A program made the translations under genes and the position numbers. A stretch of DNA of 62,996 nt, the filler included, from Folioceros fuciformis (taxonomy: Eukaryota), in NCBI GenBank assembly GCA_049999805.1. It is 16 parts of 16 records of this genome, joined end to end, with 100 filler letters (N's around TTAATTAATTAA, not from the genome) between each part and the next. Parts side by side here need not be neighbours in the genome. Positions count along the whole stretch, not along the records: positions 36,842 to 52,545 come from JBNGIO010004364.1; positions 52,646 to 58,562 come from JBNGIO010004365.1; positions 58,663 to 62,996 come from JBNGIO010004368.1; 13 more parts are not named here. One strand, written 5' to 3'. This document shows, in pieces, positions 49,541-62,996 of the stretch. The notes beneath the pieces were generated by a model that searched no databases, was not told the DNA's origin, and worked only from the letters and a program-made list of their open reading frames with translations. The number at the start of each line of letters is the position of its first letter. The stretch's first letter is position 1.

Positions 49541-51815
49541 TGCTAACAGAGCGGAAGCTTTCAAACTAAGACCATAACTAATTTTAATGAGGAATCAGAG
49601 TAGCATATAAAGGTTTAACCAAGTACCTCTTGGTCTTAATCTAGGTTGTGCTAACCTGAGTTAACTAACCCATGTTGGGTTAAATCTACTCAAACACTCC
49701 TACTTAAGCCAACATGGCTAGGGCGTACAACTCTGACAACTAAGGCTTAGAGTTAGACACGGGTTCCTCACGAGTACTTGACGTCATTATGCATGCGTAC
49801 GCAAGCTCAGCATAAAGTAAGAGCAAGGCCATGGTACTCAACCTTACAACATGTATCAAAGATGTGAAAACAGAAAGGCAAATCAGCAAAAGACACAAAC
49901 ATGCTAGTCTTAGCAAGTAGATGAAGTATGAAGAGCCAGTTTGCACTTTTGCCAATCAAGACCTAAGACTACAAGTAGAGACTTAGAAGGGAGATAGACC
50001 GTAAATAGGATCCTACTAAATTGATCTAAGTTATTATGGATACTTAAACTATGCTAGTCCTAATGTTGCAGAGTGTTGAAAATGTCGACTCTTCAAGAGT
50101 CCTTTTGTAAGTATGTCCGCCGTGTTTTCATTTGTGTTATCATATTCCACCTTCACTATTCCTCGTTCTATGGCATCTCTTATATAATGATGATACAACT
50201 CAATATGTTTTGTGCACGCATGAAAATGAGGATTGGAAACCAGAGCAAAAGCACTCATGTTGTCACAGAATAGTTTCGTGGGGCCCTGCTGCTTCTGCTA
50301 GATGGACTCAAGAAACGGACTCTACCACTCAGCCTCCTTGCAAGCATAGGTAAGTGCTTTGTATTCAGCTTCTATAGATGATAAGGCAAGAGAAGTATGT
50401 TTCTTACAACTCCAACTCACCACTGTAGAAGAAAGTAAGAAGTAGTAGGAAGAAAGGATCTTGCGTGAATCTATATCTAAGGCCCAATCAACATCTGCAA
50501 AAGAGGTATGTAACAAATGCCTATTTCCACTTGTAGAGTAACCATAGGAATTTTGCCTTTTAGGTATCTGTATATTTGTTTGACAGTAGCCCAATGAACA
50601 TGCCCGAGCTGCTCCAAAAACTGTGACAACACATTGACGAAATAACTAATGTCAAGGCGAGTCCAATTGGAGAGGAAGATCAGACAACCCACGGCCTCGG
50701 CATAAGGGACAACAGCCATTCTGCAGCATCAAAACTAGACTAATAAACAACTGTTAATTTAACCCCCACTGCCGAGGGAGTGGATACAAGACAAGCATCC
50801 TGCAAATTAAAACGATGTAGGATCTCCTTCAAATATTTGGTTTGATGCGATGTAATTAAACCAGCTGACCGATCCCTCAAAATCTGGATGCCCAAACAAA
50901 ATTGCAGATCTCCTTGGTCTATCATCTCAAACTCACAGCACAACATGTCCTTAACAGTTGCAAGCTACTCCAAGTTGGTACTCAACAACACACAATCATC
51001 CACGTAAAGTGCAAGGATAACAAATTGAGCACAAGTCGAGAGAAAGAACACATTGCTGTCAGCAAGAGACTAAAGAAAGCCAAGTTGTTTAAGGTATTTC
51101 ATAATCCGCTTATACGAAGCCCTAGGTGACTGTTTTAACCCGTAAATGGTTTTAAGGAGCTTGCATACTTTCTAAGGATGCTGCTTATCAACAAAACCCT
51201 CGTGCTCATCCATATAAAGAGTTTCCTCTAACTCACCATGCAAGAATGCAGTGCAAACATCCATTTGCTGGACCTCCAGATCAAGCTTAGCTGCTAGGGC
51301 CATCAAAAGCTGAATGGATGAAGGTTTGACCATAGGAGAGAAGGTGTCTCCACAGACAATACCATGTATCTGACTAAACCCTATAGCAACTAATCAAGAT
51401 TTGTATCTAGCTATGGTTCCATCAGCATGTAACTTGGTTTTAAAAGCCCACTTATAGCTAATTGGTTTTTATCTTACTGGCAGATCCACCAACGCCCAAG
51501 TTTGATTTTTATCAATGAGTTATACTTGTTAGCAATAGAAATCTTCCATTTCTCACCATCAGGACCATTAAGGGCTTCAGCATAGGATTGTGGATCTGGA
51601 TGAACATCATGTACACGTAGATCAGCAACATAAGCTTGAGGTCACCTAAAATCTATGGATTGATAAGGGGGTTCTGACCACTGCTCCCTAGGACGTCTTT
51701 CACGAGTGGGATACCAAGATTCAAGTGGGATACAGCAGGATCTAGAGAAAGGACAATAGGCTGGACAGCCAGGTCTTCATCACCATCTGAACCAGGATAA
51801 TCTGCATGGGAGGCT
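49541..51815 (-). mobile_element. Ty1/copia element D (RT-RNase H, PPT, short 3' LTR), degenerate
   Basis: Minus-strand RT and RNase H motifs (LYVDDC, NWTRLDI, ALSSIEAEY, HACTKHIELYHHYIRD). PPT at 49705-49697, then a TG...CA candidate LTR at 49696-49541. Related to the 22249 fragment. Confidence 0.88.
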
Positions 51816-52699
51816 TGCTAGAAACCACACTTAGGGTCCTAAAGAGCTAACTTGGGTGTGTCTTGTTGTGAACCTCCAAAGTTTGGGGTAGTAGTTTGTT
51901 TTGGTTGAAAAAGGGTTAATAGTGGTATGGTATGGTTTTCTTTTTCAACCTATTTTCCCTAATTTTCCTTTATTTTCTGGTCATTCCTATTTTTCTTTGT
52001 GCTAATTAGGTTAATTGACCAGGAAATAGTTGGTTTGGTTATAAGAGTAGGTATAGGTTTGGTCCCAAACCTGGGAAGGTTTAGGTTTGGTACCAGGCCA
52101 TAGGGTTGGGAAAGTTTGAGTCTAGGTATGGTGATTAGTTTAATATTAATTAAAGATATAATTATTAAATAATTAAACAATAATATAATAATATTAAATA
52201 ATAAAATAAGGGTTTGAACATAGGAACAGGTATCTGGGTATGTCAGGGTCTGACAATAGGCTGGCTGATTGCTTGGCTGGCATGAATGGCCATGGAGGCC
52301 ATGCCCTAGCTAGAGCTAGAGGCAGGGGTTGCGGCCGTCGCCACCCCTTTTCCCCCTTTCTCCCTTCCTCCTCCATTCCCTTCTTGCTACCTCTTCTTCT
52401 TCTTCCCCTTCCCTCTCATCTCCCTTCCCATCTTTTTGTGCCTCTTCTTCTTTGGATCTAGATTGCAGGCAAGAGGAGGGATCGACAGGTGATGGGAGCG
52501 AATGTGTGCAGGAGAGGAGGCTGAGGCGAGCTGTAGGATTCGGCTNNNNNNNNNNNNNNNNNNNNNNNNNNNNNNNNNNNNNNNNNNNNTTAATTAATTA
52601 ANNNNNNNNNNNNNNNNNNNNNNNNNNNNNNNNNNNNNNNNNNNNAAACACACATTGCCTTTGATTTAATTTATCATTTTTGTGCACTTGTACGTTCAG

Positions 52700-54024
52700 A
52701 GTAGAATAGCTTCCGCTTATTTATTTAGACTAAAGATTGCTGCTCTTGTCCTCCACTGCCTAACCTTAAGCAAAAGGTGTCGAAGCCAACATTTTCTACA
52801 TGCCATAAACATAGCAAGATTCTCACAGCCTCTGCCCATATGGCTCGTAGAGCACCTATTTCAACAGCAGCATCATCCACAAGGAAAGCACTGGGTTGCC
52901 ATAGTGGACTGTGATGCTTTATATGCATTTGAAATGCATACAACCACGCCTGTATATCCTCCACCACTGTCCGTGATAATCCAAGCAGCAGGGACTCAAC
53001 TGTTGCAATTATCAAAGACCAACAAGGTGTACAAGTGGAACTTGTACTTATTGGTGCCAAAAGTGGCATCAAGGAAGATCACACTATTATTTCCAAATTA
53101 AAGCATCATAGACTTCTGAAAAGTTGTTTGCACCCCTAGTGTAAAGGGGTCTGGATAGAAATGGTACCATACGATGTTATTGTGAGCTTCTATCCACATT
53201 TGGACACTTACCTCATCGTTGGGATGATACTAGTAAAAGCCTGTGGTCACAGTTGATGCAATGTTATCGATGTCACGAGGTTGAAGGAAGTCATCACGAC
53301 AGGGTTCATAACCACATGCCTGTGCTTTCATATCTACTCTTTGAACATGCTCTAAATAGATTTGTCTTTTAGTGGCTCCTGCAAAAAGTCTGTGTTGGAC
53401 CCATGTTCTTATCTCACTACTCAAATAAGCAGCAAACCTTGCCTGTGGGTTTGCATTGTACTGAGAGCCATGACAAATTTCACCGGAGTTGTCAATGTGT
53501 TGGTTATGGACAATAAACACCGCTGCAAGATGAGGCCAACAAGCAAGCTGCTTAACATCAAAGTGGTATTGACAACCATGCTTCACACTAGAGAGTCTTA
53601 ATATCTTGCTTTTGCATTTCCCTGTGCTTTGAGATACCTGTATAGCTAGCTCCTTGTTCCGAAAATCTATTCCTCCAAAGGCACACCAATACTTGGAGTG
53701 CCTAAGCCAAGACTACATGTTTTGTCTACGTACAAAGTTAGTTTCCCTTGCGTTTTTGTCAGTTTCTTTCCAGAACGAGGTAGGAAATGAACGGTCCATA
53801 CTATCTCTGTGGAGCAAGTTCTCCCCTCTATCCCACCGAGTGATGGCGACATTAGACAACAATGGAGTACATTTTCTTTCAGGCAACACTTGTTTGTCGA
53901 TAACAACAAAAGATAATGTCAAATCAAGAACTCTGAAAGGACCTTGCGAACAAGGTCTGCGCCTAACGGTCGTATTCCATGAAGCCCGTTTGGCGCACTT
54001 TTGAATGTACACCATCCTAGTCAC
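52700..54024 (-). pseudogene. Mutator-like (MULE/SWIM-type) transposase, degenerate, 3' end off the scaffold
   Basis: YWCAFG...KHGCQYHFDVKQL...HIDNSGEICHG...RDDFL...PFTLGVQT...LDATFGTNKYKFHLYTLLVFD...VPAAWII...WQPSAFLVDDAAVEIGAL...LLCLWHV. This gives the MULE DDE core and the CxxH motif. It has stops and a frameshift. Confidence 0.85.
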
Positions 54025-54324
54025 ATATCCACAATTAAGCTGTTTTTAAAAAAACATATTGTTTGGACATGTCGTGGACACCAGACATAATAAAAAATGA
54101 CTAAACCAACTCAATCCAATTGAGACAAAAAGTAGAAGACCGATTAAATTTTGCCTAAAAACCGAATCCTCCTTTGAGTGCGCCGCCGCTCTACCGGCGC
54201 ACTGAACAGTGTGGTTCACTAAAAAGAACCTGGCTATGTGCCTGCTATGAATAAAAAACCTTTACCAGTCGCTTTTAAATAAAGGCATATTGTACCACAA
54301 ACTGCAAGTATTTTCAAATCTTGT

Positions 54325-57300
54325 CTATATCAAGTCATGTACATCTTGGATGGCCTCAGAATCGACAACTATCTCTACGTCCTTCAAGCGCTGGCCCTCT
54401 ATGTCGCCTCCTTCGTCTCCTTCCACCTCAAGAACCAAGAAATGAGGATCATCCACTGTCTGAGGCAGAAGCGTGCCATTCTCATCCCAAATGGTCATTG
54501 CATACAGATCTTCCACTGGTCTGTCGTCTGAGTGAGTAATAACTTCACCTTTCTTCCCCAGCAAACTGTACACCTGCATCCGCCGATCCACGCTTCCGTC
54601 GGCGCAAACTTTTTTAGCCCAAAACTTTATGGGCACATGAGAGAACGGGTCTGTGCTGATTTCTTCATCAGCGTCTTGCAAAGAACCAAGGCCATTCACT
54701 CTCTGCATCATGTATGTCGTGCATCGTATATCAATGTCCATCGCGACAACATGCCTCTCCCTCTGAATAGTCATGTTTTTATAGATCGATAAATTGATTA
54801 ACAGCGAGCACAAGGCANNNNNNNNNNAACACTTTAAACCTAATCTACGAGGTGCGAAACTATTCTATCCAACAAATAGCAGCCTAAAGGAACAATCCGG
54901 ATCCTGCACAGGCATCCACTATCCAGTCTCCTTCAACCGAAAACATGTTCACCAGCATTCCCATTAACCCCAACGGCTTCTTATGTGGGGAGACGACCAT
55001 CGAATCAGCCGAGTGAAAAAGATGTTTTTTCATGACAGCCCCATGCCTTATCACTCTTGGCAGAAGAAATCCCTGATTCGCAAATAAGGCTGCTTTGGTG
55101 GTATGAGCTTCCGAGTGGACTGCACTTCCAACTGTCAGGTACTCCACAGTCTCTACTGCCCCTGCATTAGGAGGAATGTTGGTCTTTTCCCAAACCAATG
55201 TCTGCATGGTGCCTTTCTTGCACCATGGCCTAAGTGCCTCTCTCGCCTGTGAGATGAGGTCAACCCCATGCATGAGGACCACTCGATAAACATTGCGACT
55301 TGTGCATTCAGAAAACCCCTTGATCATGTCTTCAAGGTCCTCGCTAGTCAACTGCATGTCATAATCATGTCGTTGGAGACCACGAGGCAAATCAGCGAAC
55401 AATAGGGTATAAGGTCTCTTTACCAAAAATCCGCTCATCTCCAGAACGCTTCTCTGCATCACTTGATATTTCGTTTTTTGGTTGTTGTTGGGAACTATGA
55501 ACTCTGACAAACCAGCATCCGTATCGGCGTTCGCTAGTTTTTGCTTCTCCTCTTCTAACCGTTTCCAATTCCTTGCTGAGTACACGTAATCCTGGAACGG
55601 CTTGGGCAACGATTCCAGGTCGTTTATATCTACATGTTTCTGCCAACAAATATCTTCGTCAGCAAACTATATTACTTTCATTAGTCAAAGTGGTTGGAGT
55701 GCGCCGGTCGATCGGCGCACTCCAACCACCTAACCACAGAAGTTGGACAGTCCGGAGGTTGGCTTGGCTAGTGGTTGGAGTGCGCCGGTAGACCGGCACA
55801 CTCCAACCCTAATGAAAGACTGAGGCCAGACTCAGGCTAGAGTGCGCTGGTAGACAGGCGCACTCCAGCCACCATGCAGTCTGTATGACAGTATTTGGCT
55901 GGAGTGTGCCGGTCTACCGACGCACTCCAGACAGAGTCTCTGCCTTAGTCTTTCATTAGGGCTGGAGTGCGCTGGTAGACCGGCGCACTCCAGCCACTGA
56001 CCAAGCCTACCTGTCGACAGTCCAACATTAGCTGAGATTCATGAAGCAACTGAAAGAAAACTTACCACTTTTGCAAAGGCCGTCTAGAATCGAAGAAGAT
56101 TCGCGTCTTCAGTGTGCTTGGGGTATATCTGCTCAGCTTCTTTGAAGGTTGCGCATTTCAGAGCTATCCGGAACGCATGTTGTATCAGGTGAATCTTCTT
56201 CCCCTACGTCCATGTCCTTTAGCTGGAGCTTCCCCTAGATGACCTTCTAGGTTACTGCGATGAGCATCTCTTCCCCTTTTGCACCTGCTGGAACTCCTTG
56301 AAAGGCCCTCCAAGGCTTGCCCTGCATTGCGGTAACCTTTTTTGTGGACTCATCAGCCACAGGGGTGCTATTGGAAGCTATGCCAACTTCCCGTGGTTTC
56401 CTCTTCGCTTTGGCCCGCTTCTTCATGCCTGTGCTCCCTCCTACTACCTGTTCTGGAAGCTCGCTCCTCTCCCACATCTTAAAAATCCTGTCAACATTTT
56501 CCCACAGGACTCCACTGCACCTTGCTACCCGATATGGTAGTGTCTGCCTATCTACCATCTTCTGTACCCAGTCAATATCCCTTGGGTCACCTGCCTCATC
56601 CGTCATCCCCAACAACTTGTAGAGATTAAACTTCCACTTCACCAGTGGCTTCTCGTTCAGTCCATGGCTCCTGTAGAAAATATCCAACTCGTCATGGATG
56701 TATCTTACTTGCTAGATGAAGCCCATCCTCTTCCGTTTGTCCGCAAAACCATTGTGATCTACTGCGAGGACTCGCATTTCCTCATCCATCAGGCCTGCAT
56801 AAACATGCCCTTCCATTCACTCATATTTGTCCTCTGTTGGGTACATCTGATGGAGCTTCTGCATAGCTGCGAAGCAATGGTTGCCCCCAAGCACTCTCAT
56901 CTTGTAACCCTGCGCTGTGATCTTCTCCATCGAAACATCTTCCTTCTTCGAAGCCTGTTTCGGATCAATCATGCATAGGAGAGGTAAAATACCTTCCTTC
57001 ACAGACCCTATCTGCATCTACCTGACCAGGCACTTCATCCAGGCTTCGTCAACCTCACGAATCTGTGCATTCGCTGTTATATAACTTGCAGGGTGGAGGA
57101 TATCCACATGAAGATCAAATGTCGTCGAGCGGATCCTTTTCGCATGCGCTTTTCTTCGAACAGCATTGAGGTAGTCCTCATCCTGCGCAACCCTCTCCAT
57201 CCGTTTAGCGTTTGTCTCTACTGTTTGGGGTGGCTCGTCCTCGAAAGTAGGCCCTTGAGCCTGCCGCCTTTGTTTCCGCCTAGCAGAAGCCTCATTGACA

Positions 57301-57344
57301 AGCCCTCCCGACCTGCTCTTCCTCTTCTGGGGTGAAGCTGCCAC
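54325..57344 (-). pseudogene. ParB/Srx-like domain fused to a beta-class N6-adenine/N4-cytosine DNA methyltransferase; intron-containing, disrupted
   Basis: ParB-like part: IREVDEAWMKCL...RVLGGNHCFAAMQKL...VYAGLMDEEMRVLAVDHN. Intron 56065-55640 (GTAAG...GGCAG). MTase part: LLFADLPRG, LVWEK, PHKKPLGLMGMLVNMFSVEGDWIVDACAGSG and RHVVAMDIDIRC...QRV. Confidence 0.75.
55690..56026. repeat. Foldback array of five 28-bp palindromes
   Basis: GGAGTGCGCCGGTAGACCGGCGCACTCC variants at 55696, 55777, 55839, 55901 and 55964. The intervening segments are reverse complements of each other. Confidence 0.92.
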
Positions 57345-57424
57345 TGAACCACATCAGCTGTTACATCCGATGTCCACGACAGGAAACCAGACAGGAAACC
57401 AGACCAGACCAAATTGCAGATTGA

Positions 57425-58295
57425 TTAGCAAGATACGAGCCTGTGGCTCTTTTTTGAGACCTCGCAGGAGAGGTCGTGGCTGTCTTTCTTCTTCCTTTGG
57501 ACTGGGGTGCCAGTAGGTCGGCGCACCGTCTTCTGCTTCTTCCTCGGTGGCGTCACCTCAACGGGCGATTCCTCTTCTTCTTCCTGTTCATCGTGTAAGC
57601 CTCTTCCAGCATCTAGTGCCTCATTGAGGTTGTCTTCAGTGGAGGAGTAACCACCCATCTCCTTCTCTTGGTCACTGCTCAGCTCCTCCACCTCACGCAG
57701 TTCGTCTTCCGACAGCTCTGGCTGTATGCACGGCATCTCCGTCACCCTTCCTGCGCTAACACCGAAATCTGCGAAGGTCGCAATTTGTTGGCGCTCTCCG
57801 GCAATCCTGGATGCAAGGCCTTGGTTCTTCAGGACGCAATCGGCACAGAATCGCAAGATAGTTCGACGGAACTGTTCGCCTCCCTGTTACACCCACAAGA
57901 TGCAAGTAATTAGGGTTTAGGGTTTGTTGGGTTAATAAGCCTAAATAAGTAAGCAATAACAGTTGGGATAATTAACTGCTAGGTTAATAAACTGAAATAA
58001 ATGATTAAGCTAATCATATACTAACATCTTGCACATTAAGACAATCTTTCAAAGTCGTTTTTAGCCACATCGGTTCACAGCGCCGCAGCACAGCTTTTGC
58101 AACATTGACCACAATCAGGCTGTGGCTATCGTAGTCATCGGTGATATGGCTTGGTGGGTGCCGCGTGCAAATGAAATTGACGTGTGTTTCGTCTTCCACA
58201 CCGTCAACGGATGCACAAAGAATCCACCCAGGCCTCCCTGCCTCATCGTCCGACAAGCCTGGGAAACCGTTAATCCACAGAGCCATGAGCGGCAC
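57425..58295 (-). pseudogene. Uncharacterised coding segments (Cys-containing, acidic, basic NLS-like), a separate gene or 5' exons of the ParB-MTase gene
   Basis: ORFs 58295-58014 and 57856-57425 are separated by an AT-rich intron-like stretch. Contains an acidic tract and PPRKKQK. Confidence 0.4.
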
Positions 58296-58959
58296 TGTTA
58301 ATCACTGTGAACTTTCGGAACCCCCATTTTGAGCGATGGAATGAGCAGGTAGTGATTTTTTTTGTGAAGGGACAAGCGAATCGGCTTGGTAGGTAAATGG
58401 GCTTTGAGGTTTGGGGTGTACTGGAGACTGGGACAAGGAGGGGGAATGAGCGAGTGCCTCCTTGGCCCTCGGGTCATTGAGAACATTAAGGACCAACTCT
58501 GTAGGTAGGTGAGTGGGGTATGTCCTTGGCCTTTGGTGGTCCGGGGCCCCTTAGGTCTCTATNNNNNNNNNNNNNNNNNNNNNNNNNNNNNNNNNNNNNN
58601 NNNNNNTTAATTAATTAANNNNNNNNNNNNNNNNNNNNNNNNNNNNNNNNNNNNNNNNNNNNAGCGTCTGCTGTGGATACTGGGAGATTTCTTTTGTTAA
58701 GTTTTTCTGGTGCGGGGGCTGGAGTAGACTAGGTTGGCGGGGAGGGTGCTTTACTACCTCTTGACCACCGGGTCGGGGCAGCAGACTCTCGGAGAGGAGT
58801 ACTGTGACATTTCTCAGGTCGGTGTAGTGGTTGGTCGGTTGTAAACCGGTTGCAGTGTTTTGGGGCAGGATTTGATGTGGAAGTTTGTGCTTGCAGGTTG
58901 CTGGTTCCAACGGCCTTCCTCCCACTCCGGCCAGGCGGATTTTGTTTGTGGTGTTCCAG

Positions 58960-62738: not shown

Positions 62739-62996
62739 AGTAGACAATAATGAGCTAAGCTTCTATGATTGTTGCTTAAGGCCTAATGCTTCCTAAGAGA
62801 CAATACAAGCTTAAAATTGCTGATTGTCCAAGGGATAGGCCAGACTAACAACGGGTCAGTGGAAGGAGGAGACCAAGGAAACAACTTAAAATCTAGGAAG
62901 ATTACTTAGTATTCAGAGTAGTTTAATAGTTGGAGGATCCTTGTGGTAGGTCATGTTTTTATAGATCGATAAATTGATTAACAGCGAGCACAAGGC

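Follow-up and report, generated by a model that had tools for sequence, protein, structure and literature searches.

Fusions of ParB to an N6_N4 methyltransferase are described in the accessible text of a 2025 bioRxiv survey of ParB proteins as typical of, and enriched in, phages and prophages. In these proteins a ParB-like N-terminal domain of the ParB-CTPase fold is followed by a beta-class methyltransferase of family PF01555, in which motif IV precedes motif I. Prokaryote-type amino-methyltransferases have likewise been found in eukaryotes: MpDN4MT1a/b of Marchantia and N4CMT of bdelloid rotifers have the same Pfam superfamily fold, are host genes whose function has been shown and, as earlier eukaryotic acquisitions of such enzymes, drew wide interest. 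Here we describe a gene of this general type in DNA of Folioceros fuciformis (GenBank assembly GCA_049999805.1). The stretch analysed, which we call the window, is 62,996 nucleotides long, and the gene lies on the minus strand of one unplaced scaffold within it (positions 52646-58562, JBNGIO010004365.1). We conclude that this scaffold very probably holds a decayed copy of a multi-copy, mobile-element-associated gene that belongs to an uncharacterised eukaryotic family of ParB-methyltransferases.

The gene has the domain order of the phage and prophage fusions. It differs from them in belonging to a eukaryotic family whose genes have introns and low-complexity tails. Its ParB part has no sequence match to phage records or to ParBc, its motif IV reads D-x-P-Y/R and not DPPY, and the sequence occurs in many copies in a plant-like genome. 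The beta-class N6-adenine enzymes CcrM, M.RsrI, MboIIA and DpnA, which are the best profile and structure matches, have the same permuted order, and they share with the present family a motif IV beginning with D, an x-K-P element and D-x-x-x-G-S-G. However, identity to this group in structural alignments is ~14-18%, the first proline of DPPY is replaced in most of the family, the Tyr has become Arg in the window's subclade, and ParB-like and helical domains are added. The Marchantia and rotifer enzymes carry a TSPPY or S-type motif IV and have no reported ParB domain, as far as the accessible parts of the respective papers go, whereas the present family has D at this position and the present locus is a repeat-borne pseudogene.

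Comparable cases are found in two further bodies of work, again as represented in their accessible portions. The review of Iyer, Zhang and Aravind (2016) states that land plants have few adenine or N4-cytosine DNA methyltransferases. Among its eukaryotic N6-adenine clades are clade 6, derived from ParB-Tls loci, and chlorophyte-type Dam with ParB-HTH (helix-turn-helix), which likewise represent eukaryotic acquisitions of methyltransferases from phage ParB loci. The review describes clade 6 as confined to haptophytes and as having an FHA domain, and it places the ParB-HTH family, known from chlorophytes and chytrids, in the EcoKI/TaqI group; the streptophyte family described here does not appear in the portion of the review that is accessible. 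The second body of work concerns mobile elements that carry a methyltransferase or a second gene. The DNMT-bearing retrotransposons of dinoflagellates and streptophytes carry C5-cytosine methyltransferases, and Mutator-like elements (MULEs) with second open reading frames (ORFs) are known, such as mudrB and vanB/vanC. The concept is the same here, where carriage is a candidate. The accessible text of a MULE survey contains 0 occurrences of methyltransferase, methylase or ParB. In the literature searched, neither this family nor a MULE that carries such a gene is described, although proteins of this kind could be listed in the supplements to the 2016 review and the 2025 ParB survey. The present work shows a separate multi-copy streptophyte family whose architecture resembles that of the phage ParB-methyltransferase fusions and whose catalytic motif is unusual; the locus is a dead copy, and its value lies in pointing to this family.

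A ParB-like domain joined to a methyltransferase core

On the minus strand of the scaffold, we find the ParB/sulfiredoxin (Srx)-like motifs and the beta-class amino-methyltransferase motifs at the positions given by the first-pass annotation. The former comprise GGNH at 56888-56877, with V and L just upstream, followed by VYAGL, EE and HN. The latter are DLPR at 55393-55382, DACAGSG at 54916-54896 and, past an internal gap in the scaffold, VAMDID. The assignment to a prokaryote/phage-type fusion of a ParB fold and a beta-class amino-methyltransferase is likewise borne out by profile searches, by fold models and by searches with relatives.

The window's open methyltransferase core (P0002, 260 aa) was compared with 1.84 billion protein representatives, which gave 38 matches at E<=1e-3; for 12 of these the E value is <=1e-10, and the best reaches 3.7e-29. 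Four proteins that matched in multiple stretches (P0009, P0017, P0030 and P0036) were dropped as repeat-protein artefacts, their Pfam domains being TPR, VWA/EGF and similar, and all motif counts are taken over the 34 true representatives that were left. P0002 also matches the PHROG family phrog_67 (DNA methyltransferase) at E 2.7e-6, and in language-model space its neighbours belong to N6_N4_Mtase clusters (0.93, 178 shared features), mostly viral. When P0002 served as the query in word-based protein searches, at both near and longer lengths, no relative was returned, prokaryotic or otherwise. The cut-off of PF01555 is passed by 8 of the 10 relatives scanned, and P0016, a protein of Chara braunii, passes it too.

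A structural model of P0002, built with 12 sequences (predicted local distance difference test, pLDDT, 76.7; predicted template modelling score, pTM, 0.71), finds CcrM at 1.1e-8, then M.BceJIV, MboIIA, M1.HpyAVI and METTL3; the rotifer (Adineta) N4-cytosine enzyme appears only at rank 37. With DLPR at residue 92 and GSG at residue 255, the motifs stand in the permuted beta-class order. The best E value among so many proteins, together with the match of the model to CcrM, argues that the resemblance is not due to chance. The methyltransferase fold and the beta-class motif order therefore hold for the window's own core.

Canonical motif IV of amino-methyltransferases is (D/N/S)PP(Y/F/W). In the present family, the window's type, DLPRG, is found in 6 of the 34 representatives, and the most frequent form is D[ILVF]PYG, with 15. 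DPPYG occurs in one, DIPHG in two, DIPFG in one and other forms in two, and the seven that remain are fragments without the motif IV region. The first residue is D in the window and in all 27 of the 27 representatives that cover the region. That D leads motif IV throughout and that the nearest structures are adenine enzymes both suggest that the family is of the N6-adenine type and not of the S-type N4-cytosine class. The parallel that the first-pass annotation had drawn with the N4-cytosine enzymes of Marchantia and rotifers is thus not upheld, given the TSPPY recorded for Marchantia in the accessible text and the best matches to N6-adenine enzymes. The substrate of intact members would be DNA, and adenine the likely target. 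The S-adenosylmethionine (SAM)-binding motif I, DACAGSG, is present in the window, and its column is invariant in alignments A1 and A4. For the DLPR subclade with its Tyr-to-Arg change, ordinary adenine methylation is doubtful, though the SAM motif is retained.

The evidence for the ParB-like domain comes from alignment and from modelling of a relative. The window's ParB part can be aligned with the N-terminal domains of relatives (Chara, Ginkgo and JGI), and 20 columns are invariant, among them the G of GG-x-H, V-Y-x-G-L, E and H-N. A model of the relative P0050 reaches a pLDDT of 60-90 over residues 100-245, and a fold search with it returns Noc, ParB, KorB, PadC and Spo0J at the top, then plant and human sulfiredoxin, with a best E of 7.8e-5 and seven matches at E<=1e-3. 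Together with the P0002 model, these comparisons agree with the domain assignments of the first-pass annotation at both ends of the protein. None of the relatives scanned matches Pfam ParBc. A profile made from the window's ParB part and five relatives finds CcrM (1e-5), DpnA, MboIIA and RsrI among PDB sequences, so that this search returned methyltransferases only and no ParB. A ParB/Srx fold is supported for the family by the P0050 model, and for the window by alignment to it. The GG[GNCD][HN] ParB-type motif occurs alongside the methyltransferase in at least 6 of the 34 representatives, so that the fusion characterises the family and is not confined to this scaffold.

On this reading, an intact gene of this family encodes an N-terminal ParB/sulfiredoxin-fold module, a helical region resembling the HTH of ParB, and a C-terminal SAM-dependent DNA methyltransferase fold of the beta-class N6-adenine type. 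The N-terminal module of intact members may bind DNA, perhaps in a nucleotide-dependent manner, and it could bring the fused methyltransferase domain to DNA, as is thought for the phage ParB-methyltransferase fusions. If intact members are active and borne by an element, mobile DNA of plants would have in them a novel means of self-marking.

Copy abundance and lesions of the locus

The window (1-62996) is a concatenation of at least 15 small scaffolds with N runs and linkers, and the ParB-methyltransferase locus occupies exactly one of them, a 5917-bp unplaced scaffold bounded by N44-TTAATTAATTAA-N44 linkers and with an internal 10-N gap at 54818-54827. Adjacency across the linkers is meaningless, since the small scaffolds were simply joined by N44-TTAATTAATTAA-N44. 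Copy data were taken from short contigs of three runs (X1-X3) from one sample of the source organism, matched at >=90%. In X1, 881 contigs match the scaffold, of which 196 do so at >=99%, 293 at 95-99% and 392 at 90-95%; the numbers for X2 and X3 are 754 and 456. The contigs from the three runs cover 30 of 30 bins of the scaffold, and transitions dominate the differences. These observations indicate that the entire scaffold is a high-copy, diverged repeat. No contigs of a further run, X4, guessed to be RNA, matched the scaffold.

The locus is a pseudogene, one decayed copy of a multi-copy ParB-methyltransferase gene. Its first recognizable exon part (57353-56211, minus strand), which encodes the ParB/Srx-like N-domain and the helical middle domain, contains five stops, four TAG (57020-57018, 56714-56712, 56249-56247 and 56237-56235) and one TGA (56819-56817). 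The frame shifts by 1 near 56205, and the end of the same exon (56200-56066) contains a further TAG at 56086-56084. The methyltransferase core exon, with DLPR, HKKP and DACAGSG, follows at 55639-54875 and is open except for the TAG at 54886-54884. The C-terminal part of the methyltransferase, from RHVVAMDID onward and with an acidic tail, lies at 54765-54325 and ends in the stop at 54327-54325; residues 282-317 of P0004 and 235-276 of P0006 align to it. The total, obtained by read-through and by alignment to relatives, is seven in-frame stops (six TAG, one TGA) and one frameshift. Reading through the ParB-like part from 57353 to 56247 gave four of the stops, and the rest were added by aligning relatives. 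The frameshift is placed by P0043, whose residues 9-150 align in frame -1 and residues 158-200 in frame -2. The broken frame had been recognized in the first-pass annotation, but there is more damage than was listed there.

The two parts of the gene are separated by a canonical GT-AG intron of 426 nt in phase 0, which begins with GTAAGT at 56065 and ends with CAG at 55640, as had been proposed. It is considered real since removing 56065-55640 gives a gapless alignment to P0043. Within the intron, at 55689-55998, there are five copies of a ~36-nt palindrome of the GGYTGGAGTGCGCCGGT..ACCGGCGCACTCCARCC type, ~62 nt apart. The number of these units differs among genomic copies, and a partial copy lies at 54184-54203, downstream of the gene's stop.

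A late frameshift had also been proposed close to the internal gap; what lies there is instead an inserted piece of another high-copy repeat (54766-54874), with the 10-N gap in its middle and a 5-nt direct repeat at its flanks. Two X2 contigs join 54765 straight to 54875, without the 109-nt segment, and once the segment is removed, residues 280, 281 and 282 of P0004 align contiguously in one frame. Both results argue that 54766-54874 is an insertion into this copy. At the insertion ends, 54771 and 54874, other contigs depart into unlike sequence. The possibility that the 109-nt segment is a canonical intron was rejected, as none of the six possible boundary placements starts with GT. The 47-nt left arm of the insertion (54770-54816) recurs at 100% at 62950-62996, the window's cut end. 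The 10-N gap is bridged by one contig in X1 and one in X2, and the join across it, on which the first reading depended, is supported by these contigs and by collinearity to relatives; the contigs are not independent support, as X1 and X2 may be the assembly's own data.

With seven stops, a frameshift and an inserted repeat, this copy now does nothing, as expected for a silenced repeat. The first-pass annotation had spoken of a domesticated module; a pseudogene within a high-copy repeat does not answer to that description. Upstream of the gene there is also an open frame of 153 aa (57886-57425, minus strand) in the ORF list, acidic and then with a basic KKQK stretch, which is possibly a first exon. 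It matches no Pfam family, and the tblastn alignments of relatives begin only at 57350.

Distribution of the family

Named members of the family (P0016, P0019, P0039, P0014 and P0021) are found in Chara braunii, Riccia sorocarpa and Ginkgo biloba; Chara has several, among them a protein with two units in tandem. All other members are unnamed contigs. The tandem protein is P0016, of 1825 aa, in which two ParB-methyltransferase units are separated by long low-complexity stretches; it may represent two adjacent copies merged into one gene model. A metagenome scan gave 68 loci, about a dozen of which span both domains. Among these, L001 (773-3808), L003 and L005 are AT-rich contigs with intron-bearing, apparently intact ParB-methyltransferase genes. 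In L001 an intron lies directly after the GSG of motif I, and in L003 similarity to L001 is lost inside the last exon.

We compared the intact genes by their ratio of nonsynonymous to synonymous substitution rates (dN/dS), which is 0.30 for L001 against L005 and 1.35 for L001 against L003, a near-identical pair with few differing sites. The pattern fits long-term constraint together with recent neutral drift, and so fits element-borne genes, in what is a small sample. Intact members of the family thus appear to be under purifying selection.

Weighing the evidence: transposase neighbour, carrier and rivals

Several results weigh against the identification of the locus as a ParB-methyltransferase repeat. 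At the level of the methyltransferase, P0002 matches Pfam N6_N4_Mtase (PF01555) at E 1.3e-3 with 19.1 bits, where the cut-off is 26.7, the domain being split by the insertion; the window's pieces have no match among PDB sequences or NCBIfam; and the canonical DPPY is replaced by DLPR. At the level of the ParB-like domain, the window does not match Pfam ParBc, and the fold was modelled on P0050, a relative of 23% identity, with six sequences and a mean pLDDT of 59.9. The box II / P-motif arginine (GxxR), named as such in the accessible text of the 2025 survey, is present in relatives of the GGGHSREAR type and missing from the window copy, which reads GGNHCFAAM. With neither DPPY nor, in the window, the box-II arginine, activity is unproven for the DLPR subclade and impossible for this copy. 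Finally, the contig abundance comes from one sample, perhaps the assembly's own data, and yields no copy number.

The remaining counter-evidence concerns the carrier. Downstream of the gene, and cut by the scaffold end, there is a decayed MULE-type transposase remnant (54045-52646, minus strand), with a zinc-finger-like N-part at ~53600-53490, for which there are weak leads, and a DDE/MULE domain at ~53133-52740. Positions 1-39 of the MULE profile match at E 1.2e-3 and positions 40-96, in another frame, at E 0.025; the two matches are collinear and, as with a ZSWIM1-3_RNaseH-like match at E 4.6e-5, fall below the cut-offs. The co-oriented MULE of the first-pass annotation thus stands as a frame in the same orientation, with domain matches that stay below Pfam thresholds. 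Its wider proposal of a transposon fares similarly: the DNA in which the locus sits is repeated and transposon-like, and the genome is plant-like, but carriage as MULE cargo is not borne out on this scaffold, where the transposase match is below threshold, no terminal inverted repeat (TIR) or target site duplication (TSD) is seen and contigs diverge between the two genes, and relatives have flanks without transposase. No TIR pair was found within 52646-58562; as the scaffold ends inside the transposase at 52646, the TIRs and TSDs of a MULE would lie off it.

The ParB-methyltransferase gene is probably borne by a mobile element, and that it is carried as the second gene of the neighbouring MULE is a proposal we put forward tentatively. 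It is quite possible that the MULE remnant merely lies beside the ParB-methyltransferase repeat, the two being unconnected pieces of nested or adjacent debris, and that the gene belongs to another, undefined mobile element or to a dispersed family. Eight X2 contigs diverge at 53949, between the genes (with low agreement of their loose ends, 0.46), which may mark the edge of a repeat, and at the same position there is a step in depth, the MULE part having about half the depth of the methyltransferase part. The relatives point the same way. No transposase domain was found beside L016 (3.4 kb downstream, 1.4 kb upstream), L005 (2.1 kb upstream) or L001, so that the linkage expected by the first-pass annotation is missing within flanks of 1.4-3.4 kb; these flanks are also without TIRs, L016 included; L010 has a plant-type long interspersed nuclear element (LINE) beside its ParB-methyltransferase gene; and the window's MULE pieces have no tblastn match in the 68 metagenome loci. 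On the other hand, the two genes are co-oriented and only ~280 bp apart, with the methyltransferase gene upstream, and diverged contigs extend over the spacer 54032-54427 too, at intermediate depth. MULEs with second ORFs are on record, as noted above, and the relatives examined, whose identity to the query is only 22-30%, may have other carriers.

A viral origin of the repeat would account for part of the data. The family would then be a relic of giant-virus or other viral DNA integrated in streptophyte genomes and not transposon cargo, in keeping with the enrichment of ParB-N6_N4 fusions in phages and prophages, with the mostly viral language-model neighbours and with 554 phage records that match the methyltransferase domain of P0021 by tblastn (best E 3e-9). 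However, none of these phage records covers >=80% of P0021 and its ParB part is unmatched, and in IMG/VR we found no viral contig with a close or two-domain relative, there being five weak matches in the motif-I region among 70 pattern matches. Considering also that introns of the spliceosomal type occur here and in L001, and that the sequence is a short, high-copy repeat, we regard such a relic as very unlikely. An ordinary single-copy host gene gone dead, or contamination of the assembly by bacterial or phage DNA, is harder still to credit. The scaffold is unplaced and tiny, and its domain architecture is prokaryote-like, but hundreds of diverged contigs cover it, the gene is interrupted by a GT-AG intron and has relatives in eukaryotes, the scaffold itself includes a MULE remnant and a neighbouring one a copia-type element, and the word-based searches found no prokaryotic relative.

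Returning to a mobile-element-borne gene, we can outline what it might do for its element, in a scheme that we consider improbable. DNA elements of streptophytes from stoneworts to gymnosperms, MULEs in the present case, would carry the ParB-methyltransferase; the ParB-like clamp would be loaded onto, and spread along, the DNA of the element that encodes it; N6-methyladenine (6mA) would be written in cis, or the DLPR type would bind without methylating; and silencing by host cytosine methylation would thereby be opposed. If true, a transposon would thereby encode an epigenetic counter-mark for which no counterpart has been described in plants.

Two further repeats are present in the window. 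Upstream of the gene, at 58190-58387, summed contig depth is maximal, at 1453 (X1) and 1031 (X3) compared with 100-300 elsewhere, which indicates a different and more abundant repeat; it could be a terminal repeat or a miniature inverted-repeat transposable element (MITE). In the neighbouring scaffold, ORF translations point to a Ty1/copia-type polymerase remnant at 50049-51393 on the minus strand.

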